Origin: a virus
Taxonomy: Duplodnaviria > Heunggongvirae > Uroviricota > Caudoviricetes
Direction: 5' to 3' (one strand)
IMG/VR virus record: IMGVR_UViG_2850796239_000011
Location: 29,227-93,226 of that record
Length of the DNA: 64,000 nt
Shown here: positions 49,371-55,910 of the stretch, piece after piece
Numbering within the stretch: position 1 is the stretch's first letter
Layout: every line of letters begins with the position of its first letter
The notes under the pieces: generated by a model
What the model was told of the DNA's origin: nothing
Database searches by the model: none
The model's input: the letters and a program-made list of their open reading frames with translations, nothing else
Made by a program: the position numbers and the translations under genes

Positions 49371-50232
49371 GAACTTTCAGGTAGGTATTATCGTTAAGCA
49401 GGTAATCAAATCCCTTTTTGTACCAGACGGTTCCGCGCTGATGGTTTGGGCGCTCTTCGAACATCCATCGGCAATTTTCGCCTACGTAGCTCAAATAATT
49501 TCTCCAGTCCTGCATCGTGAACCCATGCCCGTCAAGCTGGCGGGTTATCACTCCGGCTTTGCGCCAGAACGTTCGGCTCTGGTTTTTACGCTTGTCATTC
49601 AGTGCGCGGATTCTTGGCGCTTCAGGAAGGATTTCGTGGTAAGCATCGACAACATCCTGACAGCTAACGGAAGGTTTTTTCTTGTCAGACTTTTTGTCTG
49701 CTGTGGCACTCTCTAATACGTCAGTATTAGAGATATTATTTATATTCTTGTTAATACCTTCTTGTTCATGATGTGCGGTTGTTTGTGCGGCTTCATGTGC
49801 GGGTGAATTGTCCATTTTTTGAGCATATTCATGGTAATTTGTGATGGTGATCACACGACCTTTTTGCTTCTCTCCATCAATGGAGATCATCCCCTCTTTC
49901 ACAAAAACCTGAAGCATCCGCTCAACCTGATCACGGCTTGCTGGCTTGCCATGCCTGTCGCATAACTGAAGACCTAAATCAGCTGCTGTCACAACCAGTT
50001 GACCGGGTTGCACATGCCATTCATGACCTTTGAAATTCGCTTTGTATGGCTTTCTGGCAGCATTCAGGAGAAGGTTTTCCCACAGGGTGCGAAGATAAAC
50101 ATCTTTCGCCCATGACTGTTTCAGAATGCTCCGGTACAACGGAATGTAACCAGTTTTCTGGTTCTCCATCCTGTTGCTCCTGCGCTCGTGTGCGGCGCTG
50201 AAATCGTAGATTTTTGCTGTATTGCTCATCAC
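49345..50232 (-). CDS. Replication initiator (O-like) containing the origin
   Basis: Position; internal iterons and AT-rich tract; start ambiguous. Confidence 0.7.
   Translation of the reverse strand: MMSNTAKIYDFSAAHERRSNRMENQKTGYIPLYRSILKQSWAKDVYLRTLWENLLLNAARKPYKANFKGHEWHVQPGQLVVTAADLGLQLCDRHGKPASRDQVERMLQVFVKEGMISIDGEKQKGRVITITNYHEYAQKMDNSPAHEAAQTTAHHEQEGINKNINNISNTDVLESATADKKSDKKKPSVSCQDVVDAYHEILPEAPRIRALNDKRKNQSRTFWRKAGVITRQLDGHGFTMQDWRNYLSYVGENCRWMFEERPNHQRGTVWYKKGFDYLLNDNTYLKVREGEHDDR
49715..49802. repeat. Putative origin: TGTGCGG x3 at ~11-bp spacing plus AT-rich tract
   Basis: Repeats at 49773, 49784, 49796; AT-rich 49717..49760. Confidence 0.5.
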
Positions 50233-50504
50233 TACCTGCCTTGACGAAAGACCTTAAGAACATCGTTAAACTGACTTACGGATATGTCTTCTTTGAGCAG
50301 CTTTTCCAGAAATGCGTTTGGAATGAACGTATATCCCTCCTCTTTTGGTAGAGACGGGAGCAACGCCCTCGCCTCAGCTTTCAGAAGCTCAGTTCTGGCA
50401 ACTTTCACAAAAGAGATTTGAGTTCTTTCATCAATGGAACGAAGGAAGCGCAAACGCTTAGCTTCTTTGTGTGTATCAGGTGGATTAAAGCCTTTGTTTC
50501 GCAT
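50232..50504 (-). CDS. Hypothetical protein (90 aa) between cII and O
   Basis: Start reassigned to MRNKGF with RBS GAGGT. Confidence 0.45.
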   Translation of the reverse strand: MRNKGFNPPDTHKEAKRLRFLRSIDERTQISFVKVARTELLKAEARALLPSLPKEEGYTFIPNAFLEKLLKEDISVSQFNDVLKVFRQGR

Positions 50505-50526
50505 ATAATTACCTCGTTGGATGTTG

Positions 50527-50826
50527 TTAAAATTCCATCTGGATTTGTTCAGAACGCTCGGTCTTGCACACCGGGCGTTTTTTATTGGTGAGTCCATCAA
50601 GCGCATACTTAAAAGCCCTGCTAATCGGACTGATGTCTGATGCCATTCCGAAAGCACACAAGACCGAAGCAATAAACCGCCAGTCGGTACGACTGATCTT
50701 CGATTCATGGCAGCCAATCATCTTTGCCAGACCGCGCTGTGTAAGCGTTGACAGGTTGATAAGTAAATCTGTTTCTGCGCGATCAACGTCGCGCTGTGAT
50801 AGTTTGCTGTAACTTGTTTGTTCCAT
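50527..50826 (-). CDS. cII: Transcriptional activator CII
   Basis: C-terminus TNKKRP..ERSEQIQMEF as in lambda CII. Confidence 0.85.
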   Translation of the reverse strand: MEQTSYSKLSQRDVDRAETDLLINLSTLTQRGLAKMIGCHESKISRTDWRFIASVLCAFGMASDISPISRAFKYALDGLTNKKRPVCKTERSEQIQMEF

Positions 50827-50911
50827 TTCTTAAGATTTCCAATAGTGAATAGTTAGTTGAAAGGTATGCATGGAAACGCATATGGCCTTAGTTGGTCAGA
50901 TATCTTGGGGC

Positions 50912-50926
50912 TCGCTTTGTCAGCGA
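50912..50926 (-). promoter_or_regulatory. nutR boxB-like hairpin
   Basis: TCGCTGACAAAGCGA hairpin on the transcribed strand between cro and cII. Confidence 0.5.
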
Positions 50927-50964
50927 CGTAGGACGAATGCCCATTGTGAAAATAGCGGTGTTAC

Positions 50965-51189
50965 TTATGCTGCCTGATTCGGTTTTGGAAACAGGTGTGG
51001 TAAATCTGGGCGAATTTCGTAAGCCTTGATCTGCCCTCCAGTGGCGTTAACGATGGCGGTAACTTTCTCTGGAGAAACCTGCCCGCCTTTCAGCCATTTG
51101 TGTACTGCTGGCTGCGTTACACCACACTTGTCGGCAAGCCGCTTTTGACTACCGACAATCTTCAAGGCTCGTTGAATTACTAAATTCAT
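50965..51189 (-). CDS. Cro-like repressor
   Basis: HTH LADKCGVTQPAVHKWL; start chosen at MNLVIQ with RBS AGAGG. Confidence 0.75.
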   Translation of the reverse strand: MNLVIQRALKIVGSQKRLADKCGVTQPAVHKWLKGGQVSPEKVTAIVNATGGQIKAYEIRPDLPHLFPKPNQAA

Positions 51190-51225
51190 GAGCATACCTC
51201 TTTCAGCCATTACTTATAACCAAGG

Positions 51226-51288
51226 ATAACCCAAGTTATAAAAGATAGCAATAACCTTTATTATTTTACTTTGGATAACCGTAGTTAT
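51226..51288. promoter_or_regulatory. OR operators ATAAC-N4-GTTAT (two sites)
   Basis: ATAACCCAAGTTAT at 51226..51239 and ATAACCGTAGTTAT at 51275..51288 between cro and cI. Confidence 0.5.
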
Positions 51289-51300
51289 AGATTTGTGGAT

Positions 51301-52008
51301 ATGAAAACATTCGCAGAAAGACTAAATGCAGCCATGAGATCGGCAGGGGTGTCGCAATCACAGCTTGCGGACATGGTTGGAATATCTCAGCCAGCCATAC
51401 AGAAGATGTCATCCGGTAAAACAAACGGATCTCGCAAGATGGTTGAGTTAGCTAATGCTTTAAAAGTACGCCCTGAATGGCTTAGTTCTGGTATTGGTGA
51501 AATGAGGGATGGTACACATGAAGAACCATCCAATATCCGTGAGTCATCTTTAAAAGCTGTGGTATGGGAAGACATTAAAAAAAACGATGACGAGTTTGTC
51601 GCATTGCCTCTTCTTAACGTTTCGCTTTCGGCTGGAAGCGGTAGCTGCGAGATAGAAGAATCATCAGAGTTCTCTTTGGTTTTCAGAAAGTACTATCTGA
51701 AAAAGATGGGGGTAACTGAAAGTTCTGCCAAGCTGGTAAGGGTAACAGGTCAAAGCATGGAACCAACTCTTCACGATGGCGATGTTGTTGGTGTTAACAC
51801 ACAAGATACCACCATCAGAGATGGTAAAACCTACGCTATTTGCCAGTCTGATTTGTTGCGAGTAAAAACATTAATCGCCACTCCTACATCGGTGATAATC
51901 AGATCAATAAATCGCGAAGAGTACCCGGATGAAGTAATGGATAGAGATGAATTTCATAAAACCGTAAGGATTATTGGCAGAGTATTCTGGTCATCGCATA
52001 GCTGGTAA
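51301..52008 (+). CDS. CI-type repressor (HTH + S24 peptidase)
   Basis: HTH at N-terminus, GQSMEP serine motif. Confidence 0.85.
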   Translation: MKTFAERLNAAMRSAGVSQSQLADMVGISQPAIQKMSSGKTNGSRKMVELANALKVRPEWLSSGIGEMRDGTHEEPSNIRESSLKAVVWEDIKKNDDEFVALPLLNVSLSAGSGSCEIEESSEFSLVFRKYYLKKMGVTESSAKLVRVTGQSMEPTLHDGDVVGVNTQDTTIRDGKTYAICQSDLLRVKTLIATPTSVIIRSINREEYPDEVMDRDEFHKTVRIIGRVFWSSHSW

Positions 52009-52045
52009 CCAGTGGCCTGAAGAAACGTTTGGGTGAGGAGGATAG

Positions 52046-52387
52046 ATGGCGTTCACTGACCTTGAATATCAAGCGGTCAAAAAAGAAGTTCACCAATTCA
52101 TTGAAAGCATAAGGCCGCCTGAACATATCCGCAATGAACTGGATATTGTTTATAGCATCAATGACCAAACGATAGATATCGGCGAACAGCGCCCCGTGTG
52201 GCAGGGCAACCCAGGTGAAACAAACATCCTGCCATCAGCAAGAATCAAGTACATACGTTCTCTGGATAGATGGAAAATCTATTGGATGCGGAAGGATATG
52301 AAATGGCATCAGTACAGTACTGAACTTTCGCTGACTGATGCGCTTGAGCTTGTGCGTGCTGACCCGGATTGCTGCTTCTTCGGATGA
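52046..52387 (+). CDS. DUF3024-like protein (113 aa)
   Basis: Recalled family resemblance (C-terminal CCFFG); 38 bp downstream of cI. Confidence 0.5.
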   Translation: MAFTDLEYQAVKKEVHQFIESIRPPEHIRNELDIVYSINDQTIDIGEQRPVWQGNPGETNILPSARIKYIRSLDRWKIYWMRKDMKWHQYSTELSLTDALELVRADPDCCFFG

Positions 52388-52549
52388 GTGAAGAGACATT
52401 TTGGTGATGGATGGTCGCAGAAGTGCGGCCTTTAATGTAATCGAAGAAAAGTAATCCTTGTAAAACTTGATTTGACTGTATTGTCACAAAGAAAGGAATC
52501 AACGATCGTTTCTTGGGTCTTGATTTGTTTTGACGATCAAATTAGTATT

Positions 52550-52576
52550 GCCTCATCAACTGTATGAGGCTTTTTT
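52550..52576 (+). terminator. Terminator/attenuator-like hairpin abutting the 52577 start codon
   Basis: GCCTCAT-N7-ATGAGGC then TTTTTT; stem contains the only SD-like GAGG. Confidence 0.45.
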
Positions 52577-53110
52577 ATGCAAACCAAAAGCTACACCATC
52601 AAAGCATTTCAGGACTTCTTACAGATGCTTCCTGAGCTTGGTATCGTCAATGATGCTACAGCCCGCAATCTCCGTGACTCTTCCCTGCGCCTTCTTACTG
52701 TTCTTGGGTCGGATTTCACCGATGCCGATATCCGTGATTATAGCGTTGCCAACTTAGCAAGTTCGTACGCAGACTCAGCAGAAAGCAAACCCTCTGAATC
52801 ATCTTTGCAGGCATACAAAAGCCGGATGCAAAGTGCTATTGATAAATTTATCTCCTACCAGAATGGTGAGATTAATGTGTCAGTTGGTGATGTAAATAAA
52901 AAAAAGGAGCGTAAAAAGATGGCACCTAAGAAGAAGGCGGTAGCTGACGTACAGGTTGGTGTAAAAACATTTGAACTGCCGATTCCATTGCGCGGAGATC
53001 TTATCGTCACCATTGGCAACCTGCCTCGCGACCTGACAAAAGATGAAGCCAAGCGTATCAGTCTGATTGTGGAATCTTTTGCGATGATTGATGGCGGAAC
53101 AAAAGAATAA
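52577..53110 (+). CDS. Hypothetical protein (177 aa), no recognised family
   Basis: Two-domain protein with Lys-rich linker; possible promoter TTGATT-17-TAGTAT at 52520..52548. Confidence 0.55.
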   Translation: MQTKSYTIKAFQDFLQMLPELGIVNDATARNLRDSSLRLLTVLGSDFTDADIRDYSVANLASSYADSAESKPSESSLQAYKSRMQSAIDKFISYQNGEINVSVGDVNKKKERKKMAPKKKAVADVQVGVKTFELPIPLRGDLIVTIGNLPRDLTKDEAKRISLIVESFAMIDGGTKE

Positions 53111-53134
53111 AGCCCCGAGGGAACGGGCTTTTTG
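53111..53134 (+). terminator. Putative intrinsic terminator
   Basis: GCCCC...GGGC hairpin followed by TTTTT just after stop codon. Confidence 0.45.
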
Positions 53135-53283
53135 GGTCGGAAATATATCCAGTATTTCCGAAGTGTATGGAGGATTACCTACCGCTACACCCTTGGCAAC
53201 CGCAAGCCAAGGATAGCGGTTCTCCCAACAAACTACAACCTGTTCGGGTAAACAGGCTGTATACAAAAACAGGAGAAAAGCTA

Positions 53284-53418
53284 TGGCTCACGATGTTAAT
53301 CGCGATAACTTCATCTACGAACACGACAAGCCGGTTTATGTGCGCAGTTACTGCCGCATACGTTTCGGTGAGCTCGAACATGTTCGTCAGCACTTCCGCT
53401 CTTATCCGAGCTGCTGAA
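53284..53418 (+). CDS. Small hypothetical protein (44 aa)
   Basis: Hand translation MAHDVNRDNFIYEHDKPVYVRSYCRIRFGELEHVRQHFRSYPSC; RBS AGGAG. Confidence 0.35.
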
Positions 53419-53648
53419 AATAACTAAATCTCAAACCCGGCTTCCGCGCCGGGTTTTCTTTGCCTCGCGATCGTCCCCCATATTTAACAGCCGCAAATGC
53501 GGTAAACCACGAACCAACACGCCAGCAATACAGCGCCCCCCTTCCAATACCGACCAATCCGCAACATTTACAAAAATAAAATACCTTTATTATCCATCAC
53601 TTATAACTTATTTATCAGAATCCATAAATTAAGTTATTGACCACCGTT

Positions 53649-53662
53649 ATAACCTAGGTTAT
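53649..53662. promoter_or_regulatory. OL operator ATAACCTAGGTTAT
   Basis: Perfect palindrome matching the OR consensus. Confidence 0.5.
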
Positions 53663-53733
53663 CTTTAAGCCATCAGCAGGACGCACTACTCACCAGGGCG
53701 GTGAATATACAACGATTCGAATATGAATCTACG

Positions 53734-53748
53734 GCGCTGACAAAGCGC
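53734..53748 (+). promoter_or_regulatory. nutL boxB hairpin (P22 type)
   Basis: GCGCTGACAAAGCGC as recalled for P22 boxB; upstream of P22-type N. Confidence 0.6.
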
Positions 53749-53913
53749 AATAACCAAAGTGAACTTTGGGGTGTGGTGAAGGGTTCATGGATGGGAATAT
53801 GTCGCACGTAAAGCGGCGAGGCCTGCGGGACTATTGCCGAATTGAAGTAGGCCGAAACAGGTCAAAATGGGTCTCCCACTTACCACACCACCAAAGTTCA
53901 TCAGGAGGTCTAT

Positions 53914-54297
53914 ATGACACGCAGAACTCAGTTCAAAGGCAATTCACGTTCTCGTCGTCGTGAGCGTTTAAAGGCAAAGGCATTAGCTAACGGCGTGCTG
54001 GCCCGCGAAGAAGCAATAAGTTCAGAAGTATTACACCGCCCTACTCTAAGCAGAGCGCAGATTCAGGCTAAAGGTACTCACGAAACGCCTGAGCGCATAG
54101 AAGACGCTAAGCCAATTAAGTTCATGGCACAGGACGTGATCTGGCAACAGAAAGAATACAGACGCAATCTGGAGCGAGCGGCCATTGTGTACGCGAATGA
54201 GTTTGGACATAAGCAACCAGAAACTGGTGTATGTCTTCCAAATGTAGCTCTTTACGCGGCAGGCTACAGGAAATCCAAACAGCTGACAGCGAGGTAA
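53914..54297 (+). CDS. Antitermination protein N (P22 gp24 type)
   Basis: Arg-rich N-terminus; C-terminus VALYAAGYRKSKQLTAR resembles P22 N. Confidence 0.75.
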   Translation: MTRRTQFKGNSRSRRRERLKAKALANGVLAREEAISSEVLHRPTLSRAQIQAKGTHETPERIEDAKPIKFMAQDVIWQQKEYRRNLERAAIVYANEFGHKQPETGVCLPNVALYAAGYRKSKQLTAR

Positions 54298-54299
54298 TT

Positions 54300-54731
54300 A
54301 TGGATTTAAATAAATTAGAAGCGTTATTAGAAGCATCAGTAAAAAATTTTATCTCAGTACTTGATGAAAAAACTGAAGATATTAAGAAGGCAAATATTGT
54401 CGAACTTGTAAAAACAAGAGCCAGTACATTTGATCATCTTCCTGATGATGTCCGGTCAGCGGCAATTCGCGTATATGTAACGGCACTAAGCAATAGTGAA
54501 CCACCAATTGATGAAGAATCAAGAGATATTCAGAAAAAACGGTTTGAGATGTTAGCCAGCAACATTATCGCTGGTTTCACACGGCTCTTAACAAAAGAGC
54601 ATGCCAGTGAAGCTATTCGCCAGCAGGCTCAGGTAATTATTAATCAGGCAGAAACTATTTCACGTGAGCGAAAAGAATTTCGTAAAGAGGTTTCTGAGCT
54701 TCAAGCATCTCAACCGCAATCCACTATTTAA
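54300..54731 (+). CDS. Hypothetical protein (143 aa)
   Basis: Translationally coupled to N; followed by a 28-aa acidic ORF at 54740..54826. Confidence 0.5.
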   Translation: MDLNKLEALLEASVKNFISVLDEKTEDIKKANIVELVKTRASTFDHLPDDVRSAAIRVYVTALSNSEPPIDEESRDIQKKRFEMLASNIIAGFTRLLTKEHASEAIRQQAQVIINQAETISRERKEFRKEVSELQASQPQSTI

Positions 54732-54809
54732 GGTGATATATGGAAGAAGAATTTGAAGAGTTCGAAGAGCATCCTCAGGATGTGATGGAACAATACCAGG
54801 ACTATCCTT

Positions 54810-55010
54810 ATGACTACGACTATTGATAAAAATCAATGGTGTGGACAATTCAAGCGATGCAATGGATGCAAGCTGCAATCGGAATGCATGGTTAAGCCTG
54901 AAGAAATGTTTCCTGTAATGGAAGATGGGAAATATGTCGATAAATGGGCAATACGAACGACGGCAATGATTGCCAGAGAACTTGGTAAACAGAACAACAA
55001 AGCTGCCTGA
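54810..55010 (+). CDS. ral: Restriction alleviation protein Ral
   Basis: 66 aa, matches recalled lambda Ral. Confidence 0.8.
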   Translation: MTTTIDKNQWCGQFKRCNGCKLQSECMVKPEEMFPVMEDGKYVDKWAIRTTAMIARELGKQNNKAA

Positions 55011-55633: not shown

Positions 55634-55798
55634 ATGCAATATGCCATTGCAGGGTGGCCTGTTGCTGGCTGCCCTTCCGAATCTTTACTTGAACGAATCA
55701 CCCGTAAATTACGTGACGGATGGAAACGCCTTATCGACATACTTAATCAGCCAGGAGTCCCAAAGAATGGATCAAACACTTATGGCTATCCAGACTAA
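55634..55798 (+). CDS. cIII: CIII (FtsH inhibitor)
   Basis: 54 aa identical to recalled lambda CIII. Confidence 0.9.
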   Translation: MQYAIAGWPVAGCPSESLLERITRKLRDGWKRLIDILNQPGVPKNGSNTYGYPD

Positions 55799-55910
55799 AT
55801 TCACTATCGCCACTTTTATTGGCGATGAAAAGATGTTTCGTGAAGCCGTCGACGCTTATAAAAAATGGATATTAATGCTGAAACTGAGATCAAGCAAAAG
55901 CATTCACTAA
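55767..55910 (+). CDS. kil: Kil (host killing protein)
   Basis: 47 aa, lambda Kil; overlaps cIII 3' end. Confidence 0.85.

Follow-up and report, generated by a model that had tools for sequence, protein, structure and literature searches.

Gene content of the slot between cI and N

The plus strand of the window (the whole stretch of 64,000 nt that was analyzed) carries, in this order, cI, a DUF3024 gene, a gene for a 177-aa protein (X), a gene for a 44-aa miniprotein (Y), a terminator, OL/PL and N; cro, cII, O and P are encoded on the minus strand. All features described below lie on the plus strand. The start of the slot is marked by the gene of a cI-type repressor at 51301-52008 (Peptidase_S24, 3.5e-18, and HTH_3; phrog_4). 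A PL-like promoter (TTGACC-17-TATCTT), located by sequence scan, lies at 53637-53665, and N (PF25694) lies at 53914-54297. With these three markers located in the same orientation, the original prediction of cargo genes in the slot between cI and OL was borne out. The slot had also been described as a hotspot for exclusion and defense genes, and the same cI-PL slot indeed holds stk in 933W-like phages and BstA in a Yersinia prophage. Terminator-like sites were frequent within 51900-53950, with 6 sites as compared with 1.8 expected from shuffled sequences.

The first cargo gene encodes a protein of 113 aa (52046-52387). It is preceded by the strong Shine–Dalgarno (SD) sequence GAGGAGG (52035-41) and is probably co-transcribed with cI. 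Its anticipated likeness to DUF3024 was confirmed by a match to PF11225 with an E-value of 2.4e-31 and 108.7 bits (cut-off 24.9), which spans positions 2-112 of the 112 in the profile. The protein also belongs over its full length to the PADLOC candidate PDC-S43 (E 7e-42, 1-115 of 115 covered). PDC-S43 is a computational phage-defense candidate that is listed in a genome survey; a literature search for DUF3024 retrieved nothing, and no solved structural relative of the sequence was found. Many 933W-like Stx2 phages share the block 51997-52431 at 97.5% identity and continue downstream with other genes. The right edge of the block is a hairpin 3' of the DUF3024 gene (GGTCGCA/TGCGGCC, 52413-52430; −12.1 kcal/mol, z −2.8), which was found by terminator scan and is also kept in phage Sp5, whose copy of DUF3024 is a pseudogene. 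The DUF3024 gene is a separate mosaic unit and lies outside the cassette of X, RNA and Y described below.

The X gene and its upstream region

The regulatory region of the cassette (52451-52549) contains TAATCC within 52451-60, GATC at 52504 and 52535, and the inverted repeat TTGAT-N11-ATCAA (52520-40). GATC was dense upstream of X, with a mean of 2.3 sites per 130 nt in 24 loci, as compared with a background of about 0.4. The promoter that had been suspected upstream of X is present as a −35 element TTGATT (52520-25), a spacer of 17 nt and a −10 element TAGTAT (52543-48). With 8 of 12 consensus matches it fell under the scan threshold, but its position is conserved in relatives from Salmonella, Yersinia and Symbiopectobacterium. 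Inverted repeats overlap the promoter and are clade-specific.

A hairpin that sequesters the SD sequence lies directly 5' of the ATG of X at 52577 (52550-52576; −10.1 kcal/mol, z −2.6). Its arms GCCTCAT (52550-56) and ATGAGGC (52564-70) are followed by T6 (52571-76), and GAGG (52566-69) lies within the 3' arm. Thus, the SD sequence does sit in a stem of 7 bp as predicted, but the stem ends 6 nt rather than 1 nt before the ATG, with the T6 run in between. The outer G-C pair is changed to A-T in Salmonella, and Yersinia carries a 9-bp version without the T run; the Sp5, type B and type C clades either lack the hairpin or have another one in its place. This element and the one at 53434-53463 both have the form of an intrinsic terminator, i.e., a GC-rich stem and a U run, and termination is predicted for both. 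Owing to its T6 run, the SD hairpin could also act as a terminator. Since the −10 element is followed by 1-2 nt and then by the 5' arm, the own-promoter transcript of X would start inside this arm. With such a start, the SD hairpin would form mainly in transcripts reading through from cI, and this geometry suggests that it insulates X rather than locks it.

X (52577-53110) had been described as a protein of no recognized family, and no Pfam, NCBIfam or PADLOC family matched. It did match phrog_2602, of unknown function (E 5e-79, positions 1-171). The family of X is unannotated and has about 1,090 representatives, and the similarity of X to it is full-length and includes the C-terminal motif. 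Profile searches revealed no homology of X to housekeeping or structural phage proteins, in line with the original prediction. The AlphaFold2 model (mean pLDDT 88.8) comprises an N-terminal four-helix domain (8-95), a basic disordered linker and a C-terminal beta-hairpin plus helix (131-168); no catalytic or membrane features were seen in it. An A8 run is located in the linker (52896-52903). The C-terminal motif PIPLR…LP.DLT..EA is near-invariant across 142 aligned representatives of the approximately 1,090, and the N-terminal half is variable.

When the N-terminal domain was compared with the PDB by Foldseek, the best match was the integrase-type structure 3lys, although this match was weak (E about 0.5, TM 0.54). 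Weak HMM matches, all with sub-threshold scores, also pointed toward the integrase N-terminal domain. The four-helix domain may therefore resemble the core-binding (SAM-like) domain of integrases and is putatively nucleic-acid-binding. While the N-terminal domain of tyrosine integrases (3lys; lambda Int, PDB 1z1b) weakly resembles residues 8-95, the four-helix domain of X is followed by just the linker and a 40-aa beta-beta-alpha unit; since the catalytic domain is missing, X is not a recombinase. A CsrA-like fold of the C-terminal domain (Foldseek probability about 0.1) was set aside. Neither X profiles nor Y had a significant sequence match in the PDB.

The RNA leader, Y and the terminator

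X is followed by a GC hairpin (53111-53129, plus T5). The original prediction had X bracketed by two hairpins with T runs; the upstream one stood, but the downstream one is weak here (−8.6 kcal/mol, z −0.65). In the window, it has lost 1 nt, a G present in relatives. The GC hairpin was found in every locus examined, often without a good U tract, and it is probably a leaky attenuator.

The gap of 172 nt between X and Y holds a conserved structured RNA, which the original prediction had missed. This leader of about 150 nt (53139-53282), delineated by covariance model and covariation, consists of H1 (53139-59), P1 (GGAGGA 53169-74/TTCTCC 53220-25), a bulge TTACCTA, P2 (CCGCTA 53182-87/TAGCGG 53214-19), P3 (CCTTGGC 53191-97/GCCAAGG 53206-12), H4 (53234-61) and the SD sequence of Y (GGAGAA, 53272-77). 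Covariance model R1, which was built with the window's clade left out, matched the window once, with 39.9 bits and an E-value of about 1e-6. In the alignment, 88.5% of cells were paired, as compared with 29-43% when partners were slid, and double (compensatory) changes occurred in 13 pairs. The covariation score of 0.311 exceeded that of shuffled alignments (0.151) and was reached by 0 of 500 shuffles. One single-stranded and 3'-strand sequence of the leader is near-invariant, and the RNA carries (A/G)TAGCGG(T/A)T. A search with a 17-nt RNA pattern retrieved 51 new viral loci; X was located directly upstream in all 22 full-model matches among them and in none of the other 29.

For these analyses, covariance-model alignment was used, since MAFFT and RNAalifold misaligned the mixed clades and thereby lost most of the helices. 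The leaders of the type C and Sp5-type loci and of two further loci escaped the model built from type B loci, and their equivalence was judged by eye. Rfam yielded no match in 50000-55000 at E ≤ 1 and sub-threshold matches only in 53100-53470 at E ≤ 10. The weak matches to sok, isrJ and leader families were terminator-like or sub-threshold and were rejected. The leader is a conserved, previously undescribed RNA structure without an Rfam family. No tandem repeats were found in 52000-53700.

The SD sequence of Y is predicted to be paired in the window (p about 1), with an opening cost of +9 kcal/mol; in four relatives, this cost was +1.8 to +5.6 kcal/mol. Pairing of the 3' strand of the leader with SD sequences averaged −6.8 kcal/mol within the own clade type and −4.2 kcal/mol with other types. 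In type B loci, RNAfold paired the SD sequence of Y with coding sequence instead. A three-way switch between 5' strand, anti-SD and SD fits type A, partly type B and weakly type C. Since the partner that occludes the SD sequence differs among clades, such a switch is only partly supported.

Y (53283-53417) is a hydrophilic protein of 44 aa (pI 7.9, GRAVY −0.9) that matched phrog_21154 (2.8e-30). Its dN/dS of 0.04-0.09 against 8 relatives (about 0.05) indicates strong purifying selection and marks Y as a genuine gene under constraint. The 44-aa ORF had been listed as a separate item; it exists, but as the conserved partner of X and with its own SD sequence occluded. Between the window and most relatives compared, Y is about 85-95% identical, and X is just about 45% identical in several of those. 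Across the X family, the slot of the mini-ORF is occupied by three sequence types of 40-57 aa. Y showed no likeness to known toxins and no match in Pfam, NCBIfam or PADLOC. The cassette ends with a strong intrinsic terminator (AACCCGGC/GCCGGGTT plus T run, 53434-53463; −15.8 kcal/mol, z −4.2). None of 200 shuffles was as stable, and relatives, Yersinia and Sp5 among them, retain the terminator.

Distribution and possible function of the cassette

The order X, GC hairpin, RNA, mini-ORF and terminator was observed in all intact loci examined, which comprise about 35 different downstream sequences and X proteins of 25-100% identity. This joint travel of the three elements had likewise escaped the original prediction. 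The cassette occupies cI-N slots in the window, in Yersinia, in Sp5 and in one further locus. Elsewhere, it was found after replication genes, in satellites without cI and N (two loci), and beside pepN in Salmonella, where it ends a decayed prophage remnant that retains almost no phage genes. Distant metagenomic members retain the mini-ORF, on contigs that are too short to show a lambdoid setting.

The only member of the X family with experimental data is ECs1184 (VT2-Sap23) of the Stx2 phage Sp5 (VT2-Sakai) from E. coli O157:H7 Sakai, a phrog_2602 protein that is 40% identical to X over 171 aa. In the Sp5 slot, cI is likewise followed by what is left of DUF3024, with the same hairpin, and then by X, the structured RNA, an ORF of 40 aa that is type-A-like, the terminator and PL/N; the slot differs by another upstream regulatory region, which lacks the SD-sequestering hairpin. 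The mini-ORF and the RNA are unannotated in two Sakai records examined, and the accessible portions of PMC7618764 and PMC5155283 do not mention them. As stated in the available text of PMC5155283, an in-frame deletion of ORF23/ECs1184 from the lysogen was unobtainable and 'appears to be lethal', which its authors ascribed to lost lysogen maintenance and not to a toxin. According to the available part of PMC7618764, ECs1184 was cloned in the arabinose-inducible vector pBAD24, gave a band on the autoradiogram and was enriched in the RNA-associated proteome (FDR 0.065). In the PNK assay reported there, its signal was not above that of the GFP control, and the authors described it as 'not a strong RBP'.

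Since ECs1184 could not be deleted, the cassette may work like an addiction or phage-exclusion module. We favor, at somewhat less than even confidence, the joint reading that 52451-53463 is one autonomous, horizontally mobile cassette ('moron') of X, a cis-acting RNA leader and Y, and that it acts as a toxin-antitoxin-like addiction or exclusion system. X is probably not the toxin, as its Sp5 paralogue, which could not be deleted and yet was cloned and gave a band, behaved like a protective or regulatory partner. X would have this role, comparable to that of an antitoxin or repressor, and would be made in excess over Y because it comes first and is followed by the leaky hairpin. Y would be a small effector gated by the RNA leader, and it would be kept nearly silent by the attenuator and by the leader with its paired SD sequence. 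X may restrain Y via its near-invariant C-terminal domain, with either the leader hairpin, on its invariant AUAGCGGUU side, or Y itself as the target. Its variable N-terminal domain may confer specificity for the promoter inverted repeats (autoregulation) or sense a trigger. If X were lost or inactivated, Y would be released and growth would stop; this release would stabilize the element (addiction), and the infection of the cell by a second phage could be aborted. The hairpin 5' of X would mainly block translation from cI read-through transcripts, and mRNA from the own promoter would leave the SD sequence free. Three contigs carry a frameshifted X with an intact Y. If these frameshifts are real, X would be dispensable there, unless an internal start yields a C-terminal fragment.

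Alternatively, X could be a regulator of lysogeny maintenance that keeps the prophage quiet, e.g., via PL/N expression or cI-operon read-through, with RNA and Y in the same circuit and without a role in addiction or exclusion. This is how undeletable ORF23 was understood in the available text of PMC5155283, and it is consistent with the recurrence of the cassette in the cI-N slot of four independent clades, with the putative nucleic-acid-binding domain of X and with the inverted repeats over the promoter. However, the cassette also occurs far from immunity regions, namely after replication genes, beside the pepN remnant and in satellites without cI and N, which is unexpected for a factor tied to lambdoid immunity, and this explanation appears unlikely.

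The combination of a variable, sensor-like half and an invariant output half in X would also suit anti-phage defense without addiction. The cassette and, separately, the DUF3024/PDC-S43 gene would then be exclusion systems, and the N-terminal domain of X would sense an invader component and free the translation of Y, which would block the invader. The distribution over accessory sites in prophages and satellites, one distant X member that adjoins a gene for an Mrr-like nuclease, and the match of DUF3024 to PDC-S43 fit this explanation. Its probability is nevertheless low, as neither X nor Y matched PADLOC, PDC-S43 itself is just a computational candidate, and pure defense leaves the undeletability of X unexplained.

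The strongly conserved fold of the RNA and its near-invariant single-stranded and 3'-strand sequence might also point to the RNA as the functional product, i.e., a DicF-like trans-acting small RNA or decoy that is processed from the operon, with ends that the flanking hairpins could protect. X and Y would then be incidental or serve as processing or chaperone factors. This is quite improbable, since the leader runs straight into the SD sequence and ATG of Y in every locus without a terminator in between, Y is under strong purifying selection, and no Rfam small-RNA family matched. Very improbable is the original view that X itself is the effector of toxicity or abortive infection and that a hairpin covering its SD sequence keeps it off: while the hairpin-bound SD sequence with a T run behind it, a slot known for exclusion genes and the lack of housekeeping or structural homology would agree with it, the paralogue is undeletable and yet was cloned in an arabinose-inducible vector with a band on the autoradiogram (available text of PMC5155283 and PMC7618764), three clades (Sp5, type B and type C) lack the hairpin or carry another, the promoter geometry places the start within the 5' arm, and the model shows no catalytic or membrane features.

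With the cassette recognized, three ORFs that were 'hypothetical' and occupy the rexAB position in Shiga-toxin prophages become one defined unit that is clonable and testable. The cassette also offers a hypothesis for the ten-year-old puzzle of the undeletable ORF23 of Sp5, the cause of which would be an unannotated downstream mini-gene. About a thousand unannotated protein clusters are tied to a common architecture, and a role of the cassette in addiction or exclusion, if real, would matter for Stx prophage stability and for phage competition in EHEC. A wider and rather doubtful extension is that X, RNA and Y represent an unrecognized class of three-component modules across Proteobacteria. 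In these, an integrase-core-binding-like sensor and an invariant beta-beta-alpha output would gate an effector of 40-57 aa via a cis-RNA switch, Dam methylation of paired GATC sites would set transcription, and the modules would serve as addiction and abortive-infection triggers in prophages and satellites, including EHEC Stx phages.

Among known systems, type II toxin-antitoxin pairs resemble the cassette in their two small co-oriented genes, in an upstream partner that is undeletable (for Sp5, as far as described in the accessible text of PMC5155283), in inverted repeats over the promoter, and in their occurrence on mobile elements with persistence in decayed ones. However, X and Y match no known toxin or antitoxin family, so homology does not place them among type II systems. 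Moreover, a leaky hairpin and an RNA of about 150 nt separate X and Y, whereas the ORFs of classical pairs overlap or abut, and the putative toxin of the Y type is hydrophilic and has just 40-57 aa. Type III systems (ToxIN, CptIN, TenpIN), which are carried by prophages and plasmids and work through abortive infection, share with the cassette a protein gene and a structured RNA with a terminator-like hairpin in between, which sets the ratio of the two. In contrast to these, the order is reversed here, with the protein preceding the RNA, and a third component, which is coding, follows on from the RNA. Tandem RNA repeats are missing and X lacks a Kid/CcdB-like endoribonuclease fold, and the cassette is not a type III system by these features. 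Nor does it qualify as a type I system of the hok/sok kind, as Rfam sok scored 18.7 bits against a gathering threshold of 59 and Y, with its GRAVY of −0.9, is not hydrophobic.

In IS10, fold-back inhibition relies on a hairpin that occludes the SD sequence and has its 5' arm transcribed only when transcription reads in from outside. The SD-occluding hairpin of X and the GATC sites in its promoter region resemble this arrangement in geometry only, with the start deduced here from the promoter-like site, and the X hairpin differs by also bearing a T6 run. Lambda RexAB, 933W Stk and BstA share with the cassette the position beside the repressor gene and a predicted expression in the lysogen, but no sequence or domain similarity to X or Y was detected in PADLOC, Pfam and PHROG scans. 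In related phages, Stk and BstA occupy the same slot instead of or alongside the X-RNA-Y cassette.

A conserved cassette and its structured RNA

The window contains a lambdoid immunity region with its leftward operon on the + strand and a cro-like gene, cII, O and a DnaB-type helicase gene on the - strand. The repressor gene cI (51301-52008, +; Peptidase_S24 and HTH domains) is followed on the same strand by three ORFs, a PL-like promoter (53637-53665, +) amid repeated operator-like sequences, and N (53914-54297, +; PF25694). Thus, the original prediction of cargo in the slot between cI and OL was borne out by gene order. The 95%-identical match to phage SH2026Stx1 (L001) stops at 53684, in the operator/PL-like region upstream of N, marking a mosaic joint inside the operator region; the N genes differ (127 aa in the window, 113 aa in SH2026Stx1).

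The second and third ORFs are termed X (177 aa; 52577-53110, +) and Y (44 aa; 53283-53417, +). In every intact locus examined, the same elements lay behind X in the same order: first a GC hairpin, then some 100-150 nt of structured sequence, then a mini-ORF (40-57 aa) and last a strong terminator. These loci came from Stx phages of E. coli and Shigella, from Salmonella, Yersinia, Raoultella, Enterobacter, Citrobacter, Leminorella and Symbiopectobacterium, and from metagenomic members whose identity to X is only 25%. X, the RNA and Y form one cassette, and this conserved tripartite architecture and its RNA are new.

The covariance model R1, built from 12 sequences of other clades with the window's clade left out, found the window at 53130-53285 (39.9 bits, E about 1e-6). 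Each locus gave a single R1 match, in every case immediately behind X, and the rest of the 64-kb window gave none. In the model alignment of 18 distinct sequences, paired cells amounted to 88.5% as compared to 29-43% with slid partners; an alignment fitted to the model is biased towards structure, the margin over the slid controls being large nonetheless. Double changes occurred in 13 of 29 pairs, and the covariation score of 0.311 (0.151 in shuffles) was attained by none of 500 shuffles. In window coordinates (+ strand), H1 (53139-59) precedes a long irregular hairpin made up of P1 (53169-74/53220-25), P2 (53182-87/53214-19) and P3 (53191-97/53206-12); H4 (53234-61), the Shine-Dalgarno sequence (SD) of Y (GGAGAA, 53272-77) and its ATG (53283) follow. 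The 3' strand, (A/G)TAGCGG(T/A)T, is nearly invariant between clades, and variants are compensated, as in TAACGG, which pairs with CTGTTA. A search with a 17-nt pattern taken from the strand retrieved 51 new loci from viruses: X lay directly upstream in 22 of them, and exactly these 22 gave a full R1 match; the 29 chance matches had neither. No Rfam family matched the leader at its threshold. In Symbiopectobacterium (L016 4600-4640), the P3 loop of the leader repeats the initial ~30 nt of the mini-ORF downstream (CATGATGTAAATCGCGACGATTTCATCTAAC).

The mini-ORFs fall into three sequence types: type A (window and Sp5, the Stx2 phage VT2-Sakai of E. coli O157:H7), type B (CxxC…CxC, with a weak likeness to treble-clef zinc fingers) and type C (very basic). 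Since type A is under strong purifying selection (dN/dS 0.04-0.09 at dS up to about 1) and far more conserved than X, the 44-aa ORF is a real gene.

Predicted control of X and Y

The hairpin upstream of X (52550-70, followed by T6; -10.1 kcal/mol, z -2.6) holds the GAGG in its 3' arm, as had been noticed from sequence; the original observation as a whole was largely correct, with one positional error, the stem ending 6 nt rather than 1 nt before the ATG. The candidate promoter TTGATT-17-TAGTAT (52520-48) is a weak consensus match. It occupies the same place in the Salmonella, Yersinia and Symbiopectobacterium clades, in each case 1-2 nt ahead of the 5' arm. Transcription starting 6-8 nt past the -10 hexamer would begin inside the 5' arm, so that the hairpin would be complete only in cI/DUF3024 read-through transcripts and may insulate X from them. 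In IS10, fold-back inhibition insulates a gene from read-through transcripts, and the arrangement proposed here would be analogous. The hairpin is not family-defining, because its Yersinia version lacks the T run and it is absent from the Sp5, type B and type C clades.

Within 130 nt upstream of X, 24 diverse loci (among them L003, L007, L010, L013, L016 and L044-L070) carried on average 2.3 GATC (Dam) sites, about 6-fold above the background of about 0.4. Enrichment was seen in all 24 loci; the window sites are at 52504 and 52535. The sites are paired, often fall within inverted repeats particular to a clade, and are seen repeatedly near -74 and -50. This pattern suggests that transcription of X may be methylation-sensitive or phase-variable.

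For Y, the strand TTCTCC has two possible partners in the window, GGAGGA upstream (as P1) and the SD GGAGAA, of which RNAfold favours the SD (p about 1). The predicted cost of freeing the SD is +9 kcal/mol in the window and +1.8 to +5.6 kcal/mol in four relatives. Predicted occlusion of the mini-ORF SD is a general feature. The 5' strand, anti-SD strand and SD vary jointly between clades (GGAGGA/TTCTCC/GGAGAA in type A, CAGGTTAA/TTAACCTG/CAGGTAA in type B, GGGGAT/ATCCCC/GAGGAT in type C), and same-type duplexes were stabler than cross-type ones (means of -6.8 and -4.2 kcal/mol). In type B loci, however, the predicted SD partner is coding sequence, and a specific three-segment switch controlling Y is a hypothesis. 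The post-X hairpin (53111-53129) is short of one G compared to the near-identical SH2026Stx1 and IMG/VR copies (AGCCCCG…CGGG-CT). The attenuator is thereby reduced to -8.6 kcal/mol, and read-through into Y might be higher in the window strain.

The DUF3024 gene and distribution of the cassette

The first ORF (52046-52387, +) encodes a full-length DUF3024 protein (PF11225, E 2.4e-31); PDC-S43, a PADLOC candidate, is matched over its entire length (E 7e-42). It starts 37 nt past the cI stop behind a strong SD (GAGGAGG, 52035-41); neither promoter nor terminator signals were seen in the gap, and co-transcription with cI is likely. The block 51997-52431, bounded by the end of cI and the 52413-30 hairpin, recurs at 97.5% identity in many 933W-like Stx2 phages, where a 153-aa gene, stk and a 54-aa gene follow. 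Among 5,426 complete E. coli genomes, 227 contained it, and only six the entire stretch 52046-53460. In Sp5, DUF3024 is a frameshifted pseudogene and the same hairpin is kept (L081 3000-3500; NC_002695 1255462-1256031). The DUF3024 gene is a unit apart from the cassette. A literature search found no mention of DUF3024, and PDC-S43 only as an entry in a genome survey; the function predicted for this gene is a computational guess.

The cassette occupies cI-N slots in the window, Sp5, L077 and Yersinia (once beside BstA). Elsewhere, it lies behind the replication genes of a different prophage, sits next to a DinI-like gene both at the end of Salmonella prophages and in a roughly 3.5-kb remnant adjoining pepN, and is carried by phage satellites of Raoultella and Enterobacter. 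Such a distribution is that of an autonomous accessory module. In a Yersinia pseudotuberculosis prophage (L007 2899-3829), BstA (KilA-N and BstA_C) lies in the cI-N slot directly upstream of the X homologue; thus, one slot can hold a known abortive-infection gene and the cassette. The mini-ORF there looks like a degraded type C. In distant metagenomic L072 (1152-2060), a Mrr_cat nuclease-like gene lies 3' of the cassette, and in another such locus, L074 (1441-3028), the place of the RNA and mini-ORF after X is taken by an overlapping 198-aa gene of unknown family.

Protein X and the putative function of the cassette

X matched no Pfam, NCBIfam or PADLOC family and falls in phrog_2602 (function unknown). 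Among 1.84 billion cluster representatives, a profile search identified 1,090 relatives (E<=1e-3), nearly all of 155-200 aa and matched over full length. The AlphaFold2 model (142-sequence alignment, mean pLDDT 88.8) has an N-terminal domain of four helices (residues 8-95), then a basic linker of low confidence (96-130) and, at 131-168, a beta-hairpin with a helix. Structurally, the N-terminal domain was closest to N-terminal (SAM-like, core-binding) phage integrase domains (3lys, TM 0.54, E about 0.5), in agreement with two weak sequence matches, to lambda Int residues 76-167 (E 0.7) and, for one family member, PF13102 (E 0.03). The modelled likeness is a resemblance, not membership; unlike tyrosine integrases, X has no catalytic domain. 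Conservation is only 25-45% in the N-terminal half, and the C-terminal unit carries the near-invariant motif (F/L)P(I/V)P(L/I)R…(L/I/V)P.DL(T/S)..EA.(K/R)I.

The Sp5 paralogue ORF23/ECs1184 is 40% identical to X, with the same architecture. In systematic in-frame markerless deletions in a K-12 Sp5 lysogen, it was not deletable, and its loss "appears to be lethal" (PMC5155283). We tentatively favour a putative toxin-antitoxin-like addiction or exclusion module in which X protects and Y acts, since X comes first and is not deletable in Sp5, a leaky attenuator follows, Y is strongly constrained with an occluded SD, and the cassette is mobile and survives in decayed elements. X would be the protective partner, with the leaky attenuator behind it, and the miniprotein Y the acting one. 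Against this count the frameshifted X alleles with intact Y, a switch model that is not uniform between clades, and a PNK assay for RNA binding that was negative or weak: cloned in arabinose-inducible pBAD24, ECs1184 gave a signal no higher than that of the GFP control (PMC7618764). In the EHEC RNA-associated proteome screen of the same study, ECs1184 fell just short of significance (FDR 0.065).

Of the main rival readings, a regulator of lysogeny maintenance, the role suggested by the authors of the deletion set (PMC5155283), is unlikely, and a purely defensive role is equally so. An RNA-centred function is more doubtful still. That X itself is the toxin, as originally predicted, is the least probable; the original interpretation was partly right, on slot and tight control, and probably wrong in its assignment of the dangerous gene.

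The available portions of PMC5155283 and PMC7618764 contained no mention of the RNA and mini-ORF downstream of ECs1184. This 40-aa mini-ORF is unannotated in RefSeq (L081 3000-3500; NC_002695 1255462-1256031), the opposite-strand GeneMark ORF VT2-Sap22 being annotated instead in Sakai. The gene after N in Sp5 (ORF21/ECs1180) is the other non-deletable gene and has no length homology to the 143-aa gene after N in the window (54300-54731), for which no significant family match was found; a lambda Kil-like ORF lies at 55641-55910.

The A8 run in the X linker (52896-52903) is A7 in three independent viral contigs (L035, L036, L037), leaving X frameshifted and Y intact. Isoform production, slippage or sequencing error could explain the difference. 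Directly after the run, GGAG-N9-ATG (Met114; 52904-52918) could start a 64-aa product with the C-terminal domain only, and phrog_36396 (63 aa) and two short family representatives are counterparts of this fragment.
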